A stretch of 64,000 bases of DNA from Escherichia coli (lineage in GTDB: Bacteria > Pseudomonadota > Gammaproteobacteria > Enterobacterales > Enterobacteriaceae). Below, in pieces: positions 8,004 to 34,887 of this stretch. Under the pieces are notes generated by a model, which did no database searches, was not told the DNA's origin, and saw nothing but the letters and a program-made list of their open reading frames with translations. The DNA lies in the NCBI RefSeq assembly GCF_048403405.1, contig NZ_CP183129.1. One strand, given 5' to 3'. Position numbers and translations under genes: made by a program. Every line of letters starts with the position of its first letter. Position 1 is the stretch's first letter.

Positions 8004-8733
8004 TTACAATAACCATTCCACAGGCAATATCGACGCCAGTCTGACCATAACCCGCTTCCAGAAACTGGTGGCGGGTTCTTTTTTGAGAACAATCTCTTTC
8101 TTTGCATGACGATCAACCCAGTTGATCCGTCCCCACCTGTCCAGACGGAGCTGCCAGGCCGCATCATACTGGCTCTGAATAAAGCGTTTATCAATTAACT
8201 GTGCCAGCGTTTCGCTCTCTATCACGAAACCCATTTCAGTATTGAGCAATGTTGAACGCGGATCGAAATTGAAAGAGCCGATAAACACCGTTTTACCATC
8301 GATGCTAAAGGTTTTAGCATGCAGGCTGGCACCGGAATTACCGGTTATGCCGCGATCGTGTAACGTACTACTTTGTTCACGCGTCGGCTTGAGTTCATAT
8401 AATTCCACGCCGTAGCGGAGCAATTTTTTGCGCCAGCGTGCGTATCCGGCATGGACGACAGCAACATCGTTAGCGGCAAGAGAATTGGTTAGGATCGCAA
8501 TCTTTACCCCTTTTCTCACCATCCGTAAGAGTTGCGCCACACCTGCGCGTGTCGGTACAAAATAGGCAGAGATAATATCGATGCGTTCACTGGGTGAGCC
8601 CATGATATCGAACAGGCGCTGCGGTAACAGTGAATGCCGTTTTGCCTTGCCCTCCCCTTTCGCCGGATCATCACTTAATAAACGTGTTTTCGCCCAGATA
8701 AGCGGCAACGTTCCATCAACCAGATGATTTATA
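8004..8733 (-). pseudogene. clsC: clsC (ymdC) 3' fragment: C-terminal PLD domain of cardiolipin synthase C, separated from its 5' part by the ISEcp1-bla insertion
   Basis: Contains second HKD motif HAKTFSIDGKTVFIGSFNFD; reading frame continues through 8709-8733 (TLPLIW... preceded by NHLVDGT) up to the ISEcp1 left end. Confidence 0.9.
8729..8733. repeat. Target-site duplication TTATA (left copy)
   Basis: 5 bp immediately left of ISEcp1 IRL; identical 5 bp immediately right of the truncated IS903 end at 11773-11777. Confidence 0.8.
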
Positions 8734-8919
8734 CCTAGATTCTACGTCAGTACTTCAAAAAGCATAATCAAAGCCTTGATAAATATGCATTCCTTCGAAA
8801 TTCAGCTTTCACCCATTGGGTGAAAGAAAAGTGCTCAAAAATATGTTAAATTATCAGCTTTTATGACTCGATATATGGTAAAATAATAGTAAGAAAAGTA
8901 GTAAAAAGGGGTTCTAATT

Positions 8920-10182
8920 ATGATTAATAAAATTGATTTCAAAGCTAAGAATCTAACATCAAATGCAGGTCTTTTTCTGCTCCTTGAGAATGCAAAAAGC
9001 AATGGGATTTTTGATTTTATTGAAAATGACCTCGTATTTGATAATGACTCAACAAATAAAATCAAGATGAATCATATAAAGACCATGCTCTGCGGTCACT
9101 TCATTGGCATTGATAAGTTAGAACGTCTAAAGCTACTTCAAAATGATCCCCTCGTCAACGAGTTTGATATTTCCGTAAAAGAACCTGAAACAGTGTCACG
9201 GTTTCTAGGAAACTTCAACTTCAAGACAACCCAAATGTTTAGAGACATTAATTTTAAAGTCTTTAAAAAACTGCTCACTAAAAGTAAATTGACATCCATT
9301 ACGATTGATATTGATAGTAGTGTAATTAACGTAGAAGGTCATCAAGAAGGTGCGTCAAAAGGATATAATCCTAAGAAACTGGGAAACCGATGCTACAATA
9401 TCCAATTTGCATTTTGCGACGAATTAAAAGCATATGTTACCGGATTTGTAAGAAGTGGCAATACTTACACTGCAAACGGTGCTGCGGAAATGATCAAAGA
9501 AATTGTTGCTAACATCAAATCAGACGATTTAGAAATTTTATTTCGAATGGATAGTGGCTACTTTGATGAAAAAATTATCGAAACGATAGAATCTCTTGGA
9601 TGCAAATATTTAATTAAAGCCAAAAGTTATTCTACACTCACCTCACAAGCAACGAATTCATCAATTGTATTCGTTAAAGGAGAAGAAGGTAGAGAAACTA
9701 CAGAACTGTATACAAAATTAGTTAAATGGGAAAAAGACAGAAGATTTGTCGTATCTCGCGTACTGAAACCAGAAAAAGAAAGAGCACAATTATCACTTTT
9801 AGAAGGTTCCGAATACGACTACTTTTTCTTTGTAACAAATACTACCTTGCTTTCTGAAAAAGTAGTTATATACTATGAAAAGCGTGGTAATGCTGAAAAC
9901 TATATCAAAGAAGCCAAATACGACATGGCGGTGGGTCATCTCTTGCTAAAGTCATTTTGGGCGAATGAAGCCGTGTTTCAAATGATGATGCTTTCATATA
10001 ACCTATTTTTGTTGTTCAAGTTTGATTCCTTGGACTCTTCAGAATACAGACAGCAAATAAAGACCTTTCGTTTGAAGTATGTATTTCTTGCAGCAAAAAT
10101 AATCAAAACCGCAAGATATGTAATCATGAAGTTGTCGGAAAACTATCCGTACAAGGGAGTGTATGAAAAATGTCTGGTATAA
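8920..10182 (+). CDS. tnpA: ISEcp1 transposase, 420 aa
   Basis: 420-aa ORF MINKIDFKAKNLTSNAGLFLLLENAKSNGIFDF... matching recalled ISEcp1 Tnp; AT-rich codon usage unlike flanking chromosome. Confidence 0.92.
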   Translation: MINKIDFKAKNLTSNAGLFLLLENAKSNGIFDFIENDLVFDNDSTNKIKMNHIKTMLCGHFIGIDKLERLKLLQNDPLVNEFDISVKEPETVSRFLGNFNFKTTQMFRDINFKVFKKLLTKSKLTSITIDIDSSVINVEGHQEGASKGYNPKKLGNRCYNIQFAFCDELKAYVTGFVRSGNTYTANGAAEMIKEIVANIKSDDLEILFRMDSGYFDEKIIETIESLGCKYLIKAKSYSTLTSQATNSSIVFVKGEEGRETTELYTKLVKWEKDRRFVVSRVLKPEKERAQLSLLEGSEYDYFFFVTNTTLLSEKVVIYYEKRGNAENYIKEAKYDMAVGHLLLKSFWANEAVFQMMMLSYNLFLLFKFDSLDSSEYRQQIKTFRLKYVFLAAKIIKTARYVIMKLSENYPYKGVYEKCLV

Positions 10183-10285
10183 TAAGAATATCATCAATAA
10201 AATTGAGTGTTGCTCTGTGGATAACTTGCAGAGTTTATTAAGTATCATTGCAGCAAAGATGAAATCAATGATTTATCAAAAATGA

Positions 10286-10315
10286 TTGAAAGGTGGTTGT
10301 AAATAATGTTACAAT
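10286..10315 (+). promoter_or_regulatory. ISEcp1-borne outward promoter driving blaCTX-M (-35 TTGAAA, 18-bp spacer, -10 TACAAT)
   Basis: Hexamers read at 10286-10291 and 10310-10315 just inside the ISEcp1 right end, about 120 bp upstream of bla ATG. Confidence 0.7.
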
Positions 10316-10413
10316 GTGTGAGAAGCAGTCTAAATTCTTCGTGAAATAGTGATTTTTGAAGCTAATAAAAAACACACGTGGAATTTAGGGAATACTGATG
10401 TAACACGGATTGA

Positions 10414-11307
<894 letters not shown>

Positions 11308-11772
11308 CTGGTTTTGTTGAATAAATCGAACTTTTGCTGAGTTGAAGGATCAGATCACGTATCTTCCCGACAACGCAGACCGTTCCGTGGCAAAGCAAAA
11401 GTTCAAAATCACCAACTGGCCCACCTACAATAAAGCCCTCATCAACCGTGGCTCCATAACTTTCTGGCTGGATGATGAAGCTATTCAGGCCTGGTATGAG
11501 TCAGCAACACCTTCTTCACGAGGCAGACCTCAGCGCTATTCTGACCTTGCCATCACGACTGTGCTGGTCATTAAACGCGTATTCAGGCTGACCCTGCGCG
11601 CTGCGCAGGGCTTTATTGATTCCATTTTTTCTCTGATGAACGTTCCGCTACGCTGCCCGGATTACAGCTGTGTCAGCAGGCGGGCAAAGTCGGTTAATAT
11701 CAGTTTCAAAACGCCCACCCGGGGTGAAATCGCACACCTGGTAATTGATTCCACCGGGCTGAAGGTCTTCGG
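11308..11772 (+). mobile_element. IS903 (IS5 family) 5' fragment, truncated after ~465 bp
   Basis: Starts right after bla stop with IS903-like terminal IR ggttttgttgaataaatcg; encodes transposase N-terminus up to ...LVIDSTGLKVFG, then sequence switches to clsC. Confidence 0.8.
11342..11772 (+). pseudogene. Truncated IS903 transposase (N-terminal ~143 aa of ~307)
   Basis: MKDQITYLPDNADRSVAKQKFKITNWPTYNKALINRGS... matches recalled IS903 Tnp; track ORF 11342..11803 reads through into clsC antisense before stopping. Confidence 0.8.
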
Positions 11773-11777
11773 TTATA
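11773..11777. repeat. Target-site duplication TTATA (right copy)
   Basis: Identical to 8729-8733; deleting 8734-11777 restores an in-frame clsC (…SSPFINHLVDGTLPLIWAKTR…). Confidence 0.8.
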
Positions 11778-12478
11778 AACGGACTGGATTCCATTTTGCG
11801 TAAGTAACGATGCGTCATAGCATCGTTATGCCAGGAGGCGGGTAACTCGATGCGATCCGCCATTTCACCTTCCGGGACATCCAGCACCTGCTGTAGGGGT
11901 GAAACCGATTTGCAATACCAGTAGCGGGCGAAATCATCGGCAACGTCCTCTACAACTGGTCCTATTGCCATGACATCTAAATCCGAAAAAAGTGGCTCTT
12001 CCCCTGCACCAAAATAGGCATCACCAATATTTCGCCCCCCTACCAGCGTCACCACGCCATCGACAGTGAAACTTTTATTGTGCATACGGCGATTGAGACG
12101 GGAAAAGTCGGTGATATAACCAAGCGGACGTAGCAAGCGAAACGAGAAAGGATTAAAAAGCCGGACTTCAATGCGGGGATGACTGTCAAGCAAGCGTAAA
12201 ATGTCGTCAAGTCCGGGTGTATTGTTGTCGTCCAGCAACAAACGGACGCGAACGCCACGCTTTGCTGCGGCTAACAGGGCGGAAAACAGTAATCGACCCG
12301 ACATATCGTCCTGCCAGATGTAATACTGAACATCCAGCGTATGCTCTGCCATTTCGGCCAGACGATACCGGGCGGCAAACGCATCCAGACTTTTCTCCAG
12401 AGGAAAAAGGCCACACTGACCGGGATGTTGCGAACACAGTGGCAGCACCGCGCTCGCCAGCCGGGGCAAATCATTCAT
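11773..12478 (-). pseudogene. clsC: clsC (ymdC) 5' fragment: N-terminal PLD domain of cardiolipin synthase C
   Basis: Contains first HKD motif HNKSFTVDG; native frame ends ...RKMESSPFI then runs 41 codons into IS903-derived sequence before a stop; start position approximate (MNDLPRLAS...). Confidence 0.88.
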
Positions 12479-13004
12479 CTCCTTGTTGAGTAAGGAGTCT
12501 TTCGTAGAGGTGGGCGTTTTCTTCATCATAACAGACAAAGTATACCTGTTCGGGTAAAGCGTGACGGGTAATAAATTCTGAAACGGTTTTTACTGCGATT
12601 TCAGCCGCTGCCGCACGAGGGTAACCATAAACCCCAGTACAAATTGCAGGAAAAGCCACTGACGTATAGCTGTTTGCCGCCACCAGTCGTAGGCTATTGA
12701 GATAGGCATCCTGCAAAAGCTGGTCTTCGTTCTGTTCACCACCACGCCAGACTGGCCCGACGGTGTGCACTACGGCTTTAGCGGGAAGATCGCCTGCAAG
12801 CGTAATAACGGCATGCCCCGTAGGGCAATCGCCCTGCTGTTGCCTGACTTTTAAACAGGCATCCAGCAGCGCCGGACCCGCTGCGCGATGAATGGCCCCA
12901 TCGACGCCGCCGCCTCCCATTAATGACGGATTAGCCGCATTCACAATCACATCAACGGCCAGTTTGGTAATATCACCCTGCACAACATGAATACGCGTTT
13001 TCAT
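12471..13004 (-). CDS. ymdB: Macrodomain O-acetyl-ADP-ribose deacetylase YmdB, 177 aa
   Basis: 177-aa [46 protein letters not shown]... with macro-domain motifs. Confidence 0.92.
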
Positions 13005-13098
13005 AACGCCTCCTTACACCTTCTTGTTTCTTAAGTGTACAGCAGGCTTTTTGGTTAAATCGCATTTTTCTGCTCAGCAAGGTGAGTTGTTCAGAAAC

Positions 13099-13478
<380 letters not shown>

Positions 13479-13479
13479 C

Positions 13480-13863
<384 letters not shown>

Positions 13864-13871
13864 ATTCTTCT

Positions 13872-13901
13872 CCCGAAAAAAAACAGGGCTTGCGCCCTGT
13901 T
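13872..13901 (-). terminator. Intrinsic terminator after csgA (hairpin aaacagggc-ttgc-gccctgttt plus T-run on minus strand)
   Basis: GC hairpin followed on the minus strand by tttttttt; sits between csgA and csgC. Confidence 0.6.
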
Positions 13902-13920
13902 TCTTTAATACAGATGTGTA

Positions 13921-14376
13921 TTAGTACTGATGAGCGGTCGCGTTGTTACCAAAGCCAACCTGAGTGACGTTAACGCTGGAGTTAGATGCAGTCTGGTCAA
14001 CAGCAGCACCGTTACCGCCACCGAACTGTTTAACAGTCATAGTAGAATCTTTACCATTCCACTGATCAAGAGTAGCGCTGTTGCCGAAACCACGCTGAGT
14101 CAGATCGATTGAGCTGTCATCAGAACCTTGGCCAACATCTGCACCGTTACCGCCGCCGTGCTGGGTAATGGTCAGATCAGAGTTACGGGCGTCAGCTTGC
14201 AGAGCAAGTGCAGAGTTACCGCCACCGTACTGGTAAATGTTCAGCTCTGAATTTGGGCCGCTATTATTACCGCCACCACCGTGGTTACCGCCGCCGCCGT
14301 ACTGAGGAACAACACCTGCCAGAGCGCTACCAGAGAATACGATTGCTGCAATTGCTGCTACTTTTAAAAGTTTCAT
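13921..14376 (-). CDS. csgA: Major curlin subunit CsgA, 151 aa
   Basis: Gly/Asn/Gln-rich repeats (SxxxxxQxGxGNxA) and signal peptide MKLLKVAAIAAIVFSGSALA. Confidence 0.95.
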   Translation of the reverse strand: MKLLKVAAIAAIVFSGSALAGVVPQYGGGGNHGGGGNNSGPNSELNIYQYGGGNSALALQADARNSDLTITQHGGGNGADVGQGSDDSSIDLTQRGFGNSATLDQWNGKDSTMTVKQFGGGNGAAVDQTASNSSVNVTQVGFGNNATAHQY

Positions 14377-14416
14377 GTAAAACCCCCATCGGATTGATTT
14401 AAAAGTCGAATGGAAA

Positions 14417-14872
14417 TTAACGTTGTGTCACGCGAATAGCCATTTGCGACTGTCTCTGCACTACAATTGCCGTTTTTTGAGTACCATACTGTGTAATATT
14501 TGCTTTATTACCAGAACCTTTCTGGATAATCATCGCAGTATTACCATAAGCACCTTGCGAAATACTGGCATCGTTGGCACTGCCCGCCTGATCAATATAT
14601 GCAAGGTTATAATCTCCTGTCTGGTCAATCTTTGCCCGATTGCTACTACCTTCTTGCGCAACAACCGCCAAAAGTTTTGAGCCTCCCTGCCGTAACTGAG
14701 CACTATTATTAGTCCCAGCTTGACCAATTATGGCTGCCTGATTAAATGAAGACTTACTCAATTCATTTACCGCGAAGTTATATTCTGAATTAGCTAAATC
14801 ATAACCTGCTGCGGCTGCAATCCCAGGCGCACCCAGTATTGTTAACATCATAAATAACAATTTGTTTTTCAT
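14417..14872 (-). CDS. csgB: Minor curlin nucleator CsgB, 151 aa
   Basis: Track ORF 160 aa; start at MKNKLLFMMLTILGAPGIAAA gives 151 aa; curlin repeats. Confidence 0.93.
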   Translation of the reverse strand: MKNKLLFMMLTILGAPGIAAAAGYDLANSEYNFAVNELSKSSFNQAAIIGQAGTNNSAQLRQGGSKLLAVVAQEGSSNRAKIDQTGDYNLAYIDQAGSANDASISQGAYGNTAMIIQKGSGNKANITQYGTQKTAIVVQRQSQMAIRVTQR

Positions 14873-15626
14873 GTTGTCACCCTGGACCTGGTCGTACATT
14901 TAAGAAATTAAATCATTTCAACTTGGTTGTTAACGCAACCTGTATTTTGTTAACGCTGCGTTACGATGGAAAGTATGTCTGCGGAAATATTTTTAATAAC
15001 TCACCCGCGCGTCGTATTTTTCTTTTTTTGTTCATACCAAAGTATTAAAACCCACGTAAATACGCTGTTATCTACGCAAAAAAATATTTTGTTTTCTTTT
15101 AAATCTCCGTTTTCCGCAATCAAAAATCACCAGACAGCCATTCTTCTTGCCCGTCGCTGATTGCTGCGATATGTCTTGCGCACAAGCCGTGACAAACCTC
15201 GTCTTTTTGCAGTAAAAAATTGTCCACGGAGGTGTGAAGAAAAAACAACAACGTTTTACATGACGAAAGGACTACACCGAAATATTTTTTATATGCATTA
15301 TTAGTAAGTTAGCACCATTTGTATGATTTTTTAAAATTGTGCAATAAAAACCAAATGTACAACTTTTCTATCATTTCTAAACTTAACAAAACCTTAAGAT
15401 TAACATTTTAATATAACGAGTTACATTTAGTTACATGTTTAACACTTGATTTAAGATTTGTAATGGCTAGATTGAAATCAGATGTAATCCATTAGTTTTA
15501 TATTTTACCCATTTAGGGCTGATTTATTACTACACACAGCAGTGCAACATCTGTCAGTACTTCTGGTGCTTCTATTTTAGAGGCAGCTGTCAGGTGTGCG
15601 ATCAATAAAAAAAGCGGGGTTTCATC
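14873..15626. promoter_or_regulatory. csgBAC/csgDEFG divergent intergenic control region (~750 bp, AT-rich)
   Basis: Long AT-rich non-coding spacer between divergent csgB and csgD; known in E. coli to carry sigma-S promoters and multiple regulator sites; individual sites not mapped here. Confidence 0.7.
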
Positions 15627-16277
<651 letters not shown>

Positions 16278-21259: not shown

Positions 21260-21267
21260 TATTTAAA

Positions 21268-21302
21268 GAAGAGCTCGTACGAAAGTACGAGCTTTTTTTT
21301 CG
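21268..21302 (+). terminator. Intrinsic terminator after serX (gagctcgtac-gaaa-gtacgagctc + T8)
   Basis: Perfect 10-bp stem, GAAA tetraloop, eight T residues. Confidence 0.85.
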
Positions 21303-21363
21303 TATATTGCATAGACCGGGGGGATGAGAAGCCCCAGGCGGAGGTCGACAACTAGCGACAGAC

Positions 21364-22731
21364 TCATTCATCATCCTTGCGGTTGATAAGAATTTCTGCC
21401 TCTTTTACTACCACCTTATTACGCCCGGTCTCTTTCGCCTCGTAAAGTGCGTTATCAGCCAGTTGATAGATCTCCTTAGGGTTTAACTCATTTTTCTGCG
21501 TTACAACAGCGCCAATACTAATCGTCACTTTTTGTGGTATGGCGTATTCAGGATTATCACCAGTTAAACGCTCAACATTTTCCCGAATCCTTTCCGCTAA
21601 AGCTTTCGCACGTTCAGTATCGATGTCCGTCAGCAAGACGCCAAACTCTTCGCCGCCGACGCGCGCAAAAAGGTCATCTGGCCGTATGCTTTTCCCAATT
21701 ATACTCACCACTGTTTTTATCACCTGATCGCCAACCGGATGCCCCCAGGTGTCGTTGACTTTTTTGAAGTGGTCGATATCCATAATCATGACGCAATAAG
21801 GCGTTTTTTTGGCCGATGCTGATTGAACTGTCAGTTCATTAAAAAAATAATTTCTGTTAAATATATTGGTTAAGGAATCGCGATGTGCAATGTCCTTTGT
21901 TACTCGTAGCGCACTGAATATATGGCACATAAATATTACCATAACGGTTAACTTACTGACTACTTCAATAGTGCGACTAATATACCAAATGGACACGCTA
22001 TACCTGCTCATAAATAAAAGAGAGACATTGTACAGTACGGCACAAAAAGCAATCACCGTCACTCCATTCCAGATATCACAGCGTAAACCATTAAAGTATA
22101 GATTAACTGAAAGCAAGGTTAACCACATGAAAATCATTATGGTAACATATGATGTTTTCCAAACCACCTGATCATTTTCATTGGTTAACTCGGCAATGTG
22201 TAAATTGTAGCTCTCATAATGACTAGAAAGTATGTGAGCAACTATCGGCCCCCCAACAACAAAAAACAAACTTATGCACAAAGTCATTTTTTTGGAAAAT
22301 AAATTGCGCTGTTTTGTGTTTTCACTAACTTTATTCACCAATGCCAGAAATATTAATATGCACAAACTCATCTGACGAAACAAATAATAGATTGCAATGT
22401 CATTTTGAACAACACTGCTTGTCAAACGCCCCTCAATAATTTGCTGAATGATAATGACGGTTTTAACAAAGTAAATCAAACAACTCAGAAAAGCCAAACT
22501 AAGTATACAGTTTGAAAATTGCCTACGGTCATAAATGAAATACAACTGCATAAAAATAAATGCAACAGTATCGATAAAAAATAAAGCAATCATTACCATC
22601 AGATAGGTTGATCGTGGAACAACTTCCTCAACGCCTGGCTGATTAAACCAACTATTCACCAAAACCAAAGCAAGCCCAAACAATAAGCTCACTAATACAG
22701 TACTACTAATTCTCAAATAGTCTTTTTCCAT
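21364..22731 (-). CDS. dgcT: Diguanylate cyclase DgcT (YcdT): N-terminal membrane sensor domain plus GGDEF domain
   Basis: GGEEF active-site motif (RVGGEEFGVLL); N-terminal multi-TMS region; start taken at MEKDYLRISS; divergent from pgaA. Confidence 0.88.
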   Translation of the reverse strand: MEKDYLRISSTVLVSLLFGLALVLVNSWFNQPGVEEVVPRSTYLMVMIALFFIDTVAFIFMQLYFIYDRRQFSNCILSLAFLSCLIYFVKTVIIIQQIIEGRLTSSVVQNDIAIYYLFRQMSLCILIFLALVNKVSENTKQRNLFSKKMTLCISLFFVVGGPIVAHILSSHYESYNLHIAELTNENDQVVWKTSYVTIMIFMWLTLLSVNLYFNGLRCDIWNGVTVIAFCAVLYNVSLLFMSRYSVSIWYISRTIEVVSKLTVMVIFMCHIFSALRVTKDIAHRDSLTNIFNRNYFFNELTVQSASAKKTPYCVMIMDIDHFKKVNDTWGHPVGDQVIKTVVSIIGKSIRPDDLFARVGGEEFGVLLTDIDTERAKALAERIRENVERLTGDNPEYAIPQKVTISIGAVVTQKNELNPKEIYQLADNALYEAKETGRNKVVVKEAEILINRKDDE

Positions 22732-29554: not shown

Positions 29555-30619
29555 TTAACTGTATGCATGTAGCGTACGTTGGCAAAGTGCCGAACGTACG
29601 CAATCCTCTTTACCGAATCGGACGATCCCGACCATTTCATCTTCTTCGAAACGTTCCAGCGCGTCACTTAATCCGGAGCGCACGCCGCGAGGCAAATCGC
29701 ATTGCGTGATATCACCGTTGACGATAACCGTCACGTTCTCCCCGAGGCGGGTTAAAAACATTTTCATTTGCGCGGCAGTCACATTCTGCGCCTCGTCAAG
29801 AATGACGACTGCATTTTCAAAGGTACGTCCACGCATATAGGCGAACGGCGCAATTTCCACCTTCCCTATTTCCGGTCGCAGGCAGTACTGCATAAAGGAA
29901 GCCCCTAAGCGCCGGACCAGCACGTCGTAGACCGGACGAAAATAGGGAGCAAACTTTTCTGCGATATCTCCAGGTAAGAAGCCAAGATCTTCATCGGCTT
30001 GCAGAACTGGACGGGTGACGATAATCCTGTCGACATCCTTATGTATCAGGGCCTCTGCCGCTTTTGCTGCGCTGATCCAGGTTTTTCCGCACCCGGCTTC
30101 GCCCGTGGCGAATATCAGCTGCTTACTCTCAATAGCCTTCAGATAGTGCAATTGCGCTTCATTTCGCGCGAGGATGGGCGAGGTATCGCGACTGTCGCGG
30201 GCCATACCAATGGCTTCTACGCCGCTCATCTGCACAAGCGAGGTGACCGATTCTTCTTCACGCTGCTTATGGCTGCGCGAATCCCGTCTCAGCACACGTT
30301 TTGCCTCGCGACGAGCTTTGATCACTGCTTTTTGTCTTCCCATGGAGAGCACCTTGAGTTGTTTGTATTCATCACACGCGCCGTTGGCAGCGCGATTATG
30401 CGCACGAACATCAGAGGGTTGGCTTCCTTGTAAGCCATAGTTTGCTTTTGGATAAAATGCCGAAAAACGGCTACGCGCACCGTTTACGGCGTCGGTAACA
30501 CATGAAAAGAAAGGATGAGGTTGAAAATACAAAGTGACGAGATGACTACCGGAGGAGAAATCTCCGCGAGTGGTGGCGCGCTGATTATCTAAAACATGTC
30601 CAGTACAGGACGTTACCAT
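29555..30619 (-). CDS. phoH: PhoH, phosphate-starvation-inducible ATPase (long form), 354 aa
   Basis: Walker A GEAGCGKT, PhoH-like C-terminal domain; 354 aa. Confidence 0.92.
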   Translation of the reverse strand: MVTSCTGHVLDNQRATTRGDFSSGSHLVTLYFQPHPFFSCVTDAVNGARSRFSAFYPKANYGLQGSQPSDVRAHNRAANGACDEYKQLKVLSMGRQKAVIKARREAKRVLRRDSRSHKQREEESVTSLVQMSGVEAIGMARDSRDTSPILARNEAQLHYLKAIESKQLIFATGEAGCGKTWISAAKAAEALIHKDVDRIIVTRPVLQADEDLGFLPGDIAEKFAPYFRPVYDVLVRRLGASFMQYCLRPEIGKVEIAPFAYMRGRTFENAVVILDEAQNVTAAQMKMFLTRLGENVTVIVNGDITQCDLPRGVRSGLSDALERFEEDEMVGIVRFGKEDCVRSALCQRTLHAYS

Positions 30620-34302: not shown

Positions 34303-34887
34303 TATCATTACGGCAAAGAAAAATACAAGCGGAATGTTTATAAAATGATGTTGGAATGTAAACAAAGAGAGGTAATGCCAGGGGATATAAACAATTATTC
34401 CAGGTACAAAGATGGGATTGTTTACAACGAGCCATGTGTTCTTGCCAGATGCCGCGTAAACGCCTTATCCAGCCGACAAAACTGTCCAGACTCAATGCAT
34501 CAGAGCTTCCATGTAAAACTGATAAGCGGGTGTATCAAGCAATTTCGTCCATCCGCGATTATCAAATCTAACTTTTTGCCCGGAACATAATAACAGCTCG
34601 GGTGTTGGTGGCGTCAAAGTCGCTGAAGCGTTCCCCGAAGGCCGGGGCAGCCCACATGGATGTGGGCTGAGGGCGCGTCTTACAGGACATTACCTCGCGC
34701 CCGACCCGGTAGCCGAAGGGGATAAGCTGAAGGTACCGCGCAGCGGCGATTTTGTTCGCCAGAGCCCGGGGTGCAGGGGGTGGCGGCGATTGGCCGCCCC
34801 CTGCACCATTCAATTTATATGGCGAGGCACATTAAGGGAGCGCAACCCGCTGCTGAAGCCAAACAAAACCGCCGCAGGCTAAGTCCC

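Follow-up and report, generated by a model that had tools for sequence, protein, structure and literature searches.

Judged from its sequence, the stretch between csgB and csgD in the window, as we call the whole 64-kb piece of Escherichia coli DNA analysed here (NCBI RefSeq assembly GCF_048403405.1, contig NZ_CP183129.1), is the canonical and already known control region between the two divergently transcribed curli operons of E. coli, and it is structurally intact. We put at about 0.85 the probability that the region is canonical and intact, with regulation that is most likely normal. Taken alone, an intact csgB–csgD region matters little, being a textbook regulatory hub with ordinary natural variation. 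Curli would most likely respond normally to temperature and stationary phase in this strain, provided that the trans-acting regulators encoded elsewhere are intact.

Extent and elements of the csgB–csgD region

The region fills the 754 bp between the start codon of csgB (CAT, 14870..14872, minus strand) and the ATG of csgD at 15627 (plus strand). Its alignment with the corresponding region of K-12 MG1655 (NC_000913.3 1103197..1103950) covered 754 columns with 0 gaps and 10 substitutions (98.7% identity), and neither an indel nor an insertion sequence was found in 14873..15626 in this comparison. An earlier description of the locus, the sequence-only reading, had presented it as a control region of some 750 bp, intact and free of IS insertions, and the gap-free alignment bears this out. 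The divergent layout was tested by tblastn with K-12 proteins as queries, which placed full-length csgB on the minus strand and csgD on the plus strand at the two flanks (CsgB 100% and CsgD 99.1% identical). The window therefore shares with K-12 MG1655 the flanking genes, their orientation, the 754-bp length, the -79..+148 segment and the MlrA, OmpR and CsgD elements. The coordinates of all features are collected in Table 1.

Table 1. Features of the csgB–csgD region and its flanking genes in the window. Positions with a sign are relative to the csgD P1 start site; footprint coordinates are second-hand, from PMC4894380, PMC12388358 and PMC3535384.
Feature	Window coordinates	Strand	Position	Details
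csgB CDS, curli minor subunit, 151 aa	14417..14872	-		151/151 identical to K-12; one synonymous nucleotide difference
csgB–csgD intergenic control region, 754 bp	14873..15626			Gap-free K-12 alignment, 10 substitutions
CsgD box CGGGTGAGTTA of csgBA promoter (csgB strand)	14997..15007	-		Exact regex match; identical in K-12
Substitution	15013		-466	Window C, K-12 T; 5 bp distal of CsgD box
Substitution	15029		-450	Window T, K-12 A
Substitution	15118		-361	Window A, K-12 T
Substitution	15127		-352	Window T, K-12 G
Substitution	15138		-341	Window C, K-12 T
RcdA initial footprint	15171..15287		-308..-192	PMC3535384; includes SNPs -242 and -230
Substitution	15237		-242	Window A, K-12 G; in RcdA initial footprint
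Substitution	15249		-230	Window C, K-12 G; in RcdA initial footprint
H-NS footprint	15278..15506		-201..+28	PMC12388358, PMC4894380; includes SNPs -167, -92, -80
Substitution	15312		-167	Window G, K-12 T; in H-NS region only
MlrA box AAAATTGTGCA-N12-TGTACAACTTT	15333..15366	+	-146..-113	Exact published site; identical in K-12
CpxR boxes around MqsA-like palindrome	15377..15411		-102..-90, -80..-68	PMC4894380; SNPs -92 and -80 inside
Promoter-proximal IHF footprint	15383..15442		-96..-37	Quoted in PMC4894380
Substitution	15387		-92	Window C, K-12 T; in CpxR box and IHF footprint
Substitution	15399		-80	Window A, K-12 G; edge base of CpxR box, in MqsA palindrome
OmpR activating site, D1-type direct repeat GTTACATTTAGTTACATGTT	15420..15439	+	-59..-40	Identical to K-12
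csgD P1 core: -35-like TTGATT, 16-bp spacer, -10 TAGATT	15446..15473	+		Identical to K-12; placed from start-site anchor
csgD 5' untranslated leader, 148 nt	15479..15626	+		100% identical to K-12, ribosome-binding site included
csgD CDS, 216 aa	15627..16277	+		214/216 identical to K-12; S19P, S110A

The same reading had called the region unusually long and AT-rich, and this holds at its exact coordinates. Its GC content was 34.6% compared to 49.6% for the 64-kb window, and the lowest GC content of any 200 bp in the window (22.5%) was reached at 15279..15478, that is, from -200 to -1 of the csgD start site, in the part covered by the H-NS footprint. The gap also ranked as the longest of 18 in the surrounding 19-kb stretch (754 bp, the next being 590 and 393 bp), the gaps being those between neighbouring annotated genes plus the serX tRNA as read in strain 4621, which is nearly identical. 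With GC taken over 754 bp, the region was among five similarly AT-rich troughs in the window, the remaining ones lying at ISEcp1, the dgcT region and yccE. The yccE homologue in that last trough (about 50234..51494, mapping to L016 25752..27012) carries a frameshift in the annotation of strain 4621, and the window sequence is identical there.

The start site (+1) of csgD P1 was set at 15479 by means of the primer pair that defines the -335..+67 fragment in a 2025 footprinting paper (PMC12388358), both primers of which match the window. From -79 to +148 of this promoter, which includes core promoter and leader, no difference from K-12 was detected. The RcsB footprint at -31..+54, as given in PMC12388358, lies in a stretch identical to K-12. 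The MlrA palindrome quoted in PMC3509220, AAAGTTGTACA(12N)TGCACAATTTT, was matched exactly as its reverse complement at 15333..15366. Regex scans for the IHF, CpxR, RcdA and CRP consensus gave no match in this DNA or in K-12, which says little given that such sites are degenerate.

The direct repeat GTTACATTTAGTTACATGTT at -59..-40 is the element that we take to be the OmpR activating site of Prigent-Combaret (2001) and Jubelin (2005). PMC13304067 and PMC10002515 place an OmpR D1 site at about -50.

A hidden, unannotated RNA or gene in the region was considered and rejected. The sole Rfam match, ES056 (RF02752; 15480..15571, 119.7 bits), corresponds to +2..+93 of the csgD leader, and this 'sRNA' match is probably a fragment of the leader and not an independent gene. 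The leader is a target of curli-repressing small RNAs. Short open reading frames of 40-64 aa inside the region had the length and composition expected for AT-rich DNA.

On the csgB side, the only exact CsgD box of the region sits 125-135 bp upstream of the csgB ATG. The CsgD-box consensus that Brombacher et al. are said to have described in 2003 reportedly reads CGGGKGAGNKA. A scan of 11200..15700 for sigma-70 promoters and terminators stayed at chance level (6 promoter-like sites vs 7.2 expected, 7 terminator-like sites vs 4.6 expected) and did not locate the csgBA promoter, and literature searches turned up nothing usable on the coordinates of CsgD sites at the csgB promoter; positions on this side are given relative to the csgB ATG, without a csgB start site.

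The regulatory mechanism is established for K-12 and is carried over to the window from sequence identity. RNA polymerase would begin transcription of csgDEFG at about 15479, from a weak promoter with a 16-bp spacer that would require both OmpR at -59..-40 and MlrA at -146..-113. The AT-rich DNA upstream would be coated by H-NS and would carry overlapping sites for IHF, CpxR, RcsB, RcdA and further regulators, and the 148-nt leader would offer a landing pad to the repressing small RNAs. CsgD would then switch on csgBAC, on the opposite strand, via the box at 14997..15007. According to cited descriptions, csgD-csgB of Salmonella enterica (agfD-agfB) has the same divergent architecture and the same regulators, with OmpR D1 at about -50, MlrA, IHF, H-NS and CpxR. 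In contrast to E. coli, extra OmpR sites D2-D6 are described for Salmonella in PMC10002515, and according to PMC12388358 the Salmonella leader diverges from the E. coli one at +1 to +54.

Distribution of the region and of its ten substitutions

A match to the csgB–csgD region was found in 5,371 of 5,426 complete E. coli genomes, 55 having none at all, and 5,329 of the 5,426 hold a full-length copy, defined as a single place covering at least 80% of the region, with identities of 97.6-100%. With an intact copy in about 98% of complete genomes, preservation is therefore the rule and not special to this strain. An identity of at least 99% to the region of the window was reached by 420 genomes, and four complete genomes (strains 4621, MS 69-1, TUM1226 and OX030728) were 100% identical to it over all 754 bp.

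Real disruptions of the region were also seen. In E. coli PEC389 (NZ_CM168012.1 2865649..2867178) an IS1A interrupts the csgB-csgD intergenic region, the type of disruption that the earlier description had excluded for the strain of the window. In the bloodstream isolate E. coli Z1002 (NZ_CP021202.1), 10 bp are missing (-60..-51, aligned to 15419..15428 of the window), so that the OmpR activating site has lost one of its GTTACATTTA repeat copies; loss of csgD activation would be predicted for this isolate, as an example of a real lesion in the region.

The ten substitutions that separate the window from K-12 are all located 80 bp or more upstream of the start of csgD transcription and leave the MlrA and CsgD boxes unaffected. 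They were compared in a panel of 14 alleles, made up of the window, K-12, strain 4621 (identical to the window) and 11 others sampled across the identity ranking. At -450, -352, -167 and -80 most of the panel agrees with the window, and K-12 is the odd one, usually together with BL21. Minority alleles shared with the nearer relatives M7424, ETEC6333 and Z1002 were found at five positions (-361 A, -341 C, -242 A, -230 C and -92 C), and -466 C was present only in the window and strain 4621. The ten differences would thus represent ordinary lineage polymorphisms: four K-12 oddities, five minority clade alleles and one clone-specific change (-466 C). An alignment with K-12 only is misleading in this respect, as four of the ten apparent mutations are peculiarities of K-12.

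Searches in the complete genomes gave a similar view, and which alleles are derived is already evident from these E. coli-wide frequencies. The exact 61-mer around -466 occurred in 4 of 4,993 genomes, the four with the identical 754 bp, and that around -92 and -80 in 47 of 4,809, -92 C being a rare derived allele. With a 31-mer around -80, A was found in 2,249 and G in 2,158 of the 5,426 genomes (about 41% vs 40%), so that, at one of the footprint SNPs, two alleles of roughly equal frequency exist across the species. Within phylogroup B2 the base at -80 also differs, being G in UTI89 and A in an O25:H4 strain, which suggests recombination or recurrent change.

Substitutions inside published regulator sites

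The sequence-only reading had named point mutations in known promoter elements, as revealed by alignment, as what would speak against wild-type regulation. The alignment upheld it for the core promoter, the OmpR and MlrA sites, the CsgD box and the leader, all identical to K-12, but four substitutions (-80, -92, -242 and -230) fall in published sites, and on the csgB side -466 C lies 5 bp away from the CsgD box. These substitutions are natural alleles and not lesions, none of them touching a core element; in particular, -80 A, present in about 41% of complete genomes, is not a lesion. Wild-type regulation of curli in this strain is plausible, although the claim cannot be read from the sequence, since -80 and -92 lie inside published footprints.

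Soo and Wood (PMC4894380) describe an MqsA palindrome AACCT-TA-AGGTT ending at -78, and give the limits of the CpxR boxes (-68..-80 and -90..-102), the IHF footprint (-37..-96) and the H-NS region (+28..-201). At 15390..15401 (-89..-78) the window reads AACCTTAAGATT vs AACCTTAAGGTT in K-12, so that the perfect palindrome is that of K-12 and the one in the window is imperfect. The CpxR half-site at -80 reads ATTAA in the window and GTTAA in K-12, compared to the consensus GTAAA, and its match is thus lowered, whereas direct reading of the half-site at -92 showed one non-consensus base (T) replaced by another (C).

The substitutions at -80 and -92 might therefore weaken binding of the repressors CpxR and MqsA, or alter bending by IHF, leading to csgD transcription that is higher or less restricted by temperature. 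Both SNPs lie within footprints given in PMC4894380, where mutation of the palindrome drastically reduced MqsA binding in vitro, -92 C is rare and derived, and a 2026 preprint reports that polymorphism of the region (OmpR, IHF and CsgD sites) clusters with isolates of semi-constitutive, temperature-independent rdar expression. Yet this explanation seems unlikely to us, given that -80 A is so widespread, that -92 leaves the half-site with a non-consensus base as before, that the control of csgD by MqsA was not reproduced at physiological protein levels according to PMC6918082, and that csgBA expression in planktonic K-12 was unchanged on deletion of cpxR, mqsR, rstA or rcdA in PMC12713406.

One-base changes in this region can have strong effects on curli expression, as described for Salmonella and E. 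coli O157:H7 (PMC13304067, PMC10459773). Changes of this kind in the promoter switch rdar expression in Salmonella (PMC13304067), and curli-constitutive promoter mutants of Salmonella and O157:H7 are cited in PMC10459773. Promoter-core mutations of the Salmonella and O157:H7 type would be excluded here solely in the sense that -79..+148 equals the K-12 sequence.

The base at -466 was considered separately. Its C could change the activation of csgBAC by CsgD, in such a way that fibre output would differ despite normal csgD expression; the allele is confined to the four genomes mentioned above and adjoins the sole exact CsgD box of the region, but the base lies outside the 11-bp box and its four carriers were deposited as separate assemblies (4621, isolated from blood in Houston; MS 69-1; TUM1226; OX030728), and we regard an effect of this kind as highly improbable. 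A joint action of -92 C, -80 A and -466 C, raising curli expression or relaxing its temperature restriction in an ESBL bloodstream lineage, is likewise quite improbable. If it were true, with A and G at -80 being about equally common (about 41% and 40%), the K-12 repressor map would be inapplicable to about half of E. coli.

The ISEcp1 insertion and the matrix genes nearby

The neighbourhood's clinically relevant feature is a chromosomal insertion of ISEcp1-blaCTX-M-14 in clsC. The ISEcp1-blaCTX-M-14-ΔIS903B transposition unit (3,039 bp, 8734..11772) starts with CCTAGATTCTACG and is flanked by a 5-bp target duplication, TTATA, at 8729..8733 and 11773..11777. It splits chromosomal clsC (ymdC) at about codon 233, whereas clsC is uninterrupted in strain 4621, which thus provides the empty site. 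Together with the left inverted repeat and a transposase located upstream of bla, the duplication and the empty site identify it as an ISEcp1 transposition unit. The bla gene product was identical to WP_001617865.1 over 291/291 residues, in agreement with the earlier description of the strain as ESBL-carrying. The junction between clsC and ISEcp1 was found in 0 of 5,426 complete E. coli genomes; elsewhere the same unit occupies different chromosomal sites (bcsC, bcsA and lamB).

The unit lies 1.76 kb from the csgC stop codon, with bla and the ISEcp1 transposase directed towards ymdB, ymdA and csgCAB and antisense to them. Curli output, instead of following from the state of the csgB–csgD region, could be set by outward antisense transcription from ISEcp1, or elsewhere in the genome, by rpoS, mlrA, ompR, c-di-GMP enzymes or rcsB. 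This is rather unlikely in our view: the proximity and direction of the unit favour it, but a terminator-like hairpin (11592..11610) is present downstream of bla within the insert, and the window gives no hint of a trans defect. The alternatives overlap with one another and with the main reading of an intact and normally regulated region, and the probabilities attached to them do not add up to 1.

Insert aside, 18.7 kb surrounding the locus were 100.000% identical to strain 4621 (NZ_CP103479.1; from blood, Houston), and in the next 39.5 kb 2 SNPs were detected, at 34393 and 44963. As these are the sole substitutions in about 58 kb shared, the strain of the window and the Houston bloodstream isolate are essentially one clone.

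The remaining curli proteins CsgA, C, E, F and G were full length and 98-100% identical to K-12 by tblastn. The exact CsgD sequence occurs in at least 1,000 contigs and gives its name to a UniRef cluster with 107 members, compared to 5 in the cluster headed by the K-12 form; thus, the CsgD of the window is the common allele. PgaA-D were also full length (97.9-99.8% identity to K-12), and DgcT is a protein of 455 aa whose GGEEF motif sits at residue 359 and whose C-terminus differs from that of K-12. pgaABCD and dgcT are thus intact, as had been claimed, but the further statement on complete biofilm matrix loci goes too far, as the genes for cellulose (bcs) lie outside the window, and so do rpoS, mlrA, ompR and the c-di-GMP module.

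In K-12, dgcT ends against IS3D. The K-12 islet between dgcT and the tRNA-Ser gene serX (IS3D, ymdE and ycdU; about 3.3 kb) is absent from the window and from strain 4621, the positions concerned in the window, dgcT included, being 21260..21363 and 21364..22731. Finally, opposite the 3' end of phoH, the Rfam family Ysr251, a Yersinia antisense RNA family, was matched at 29560..29753 with 192.8 bits.
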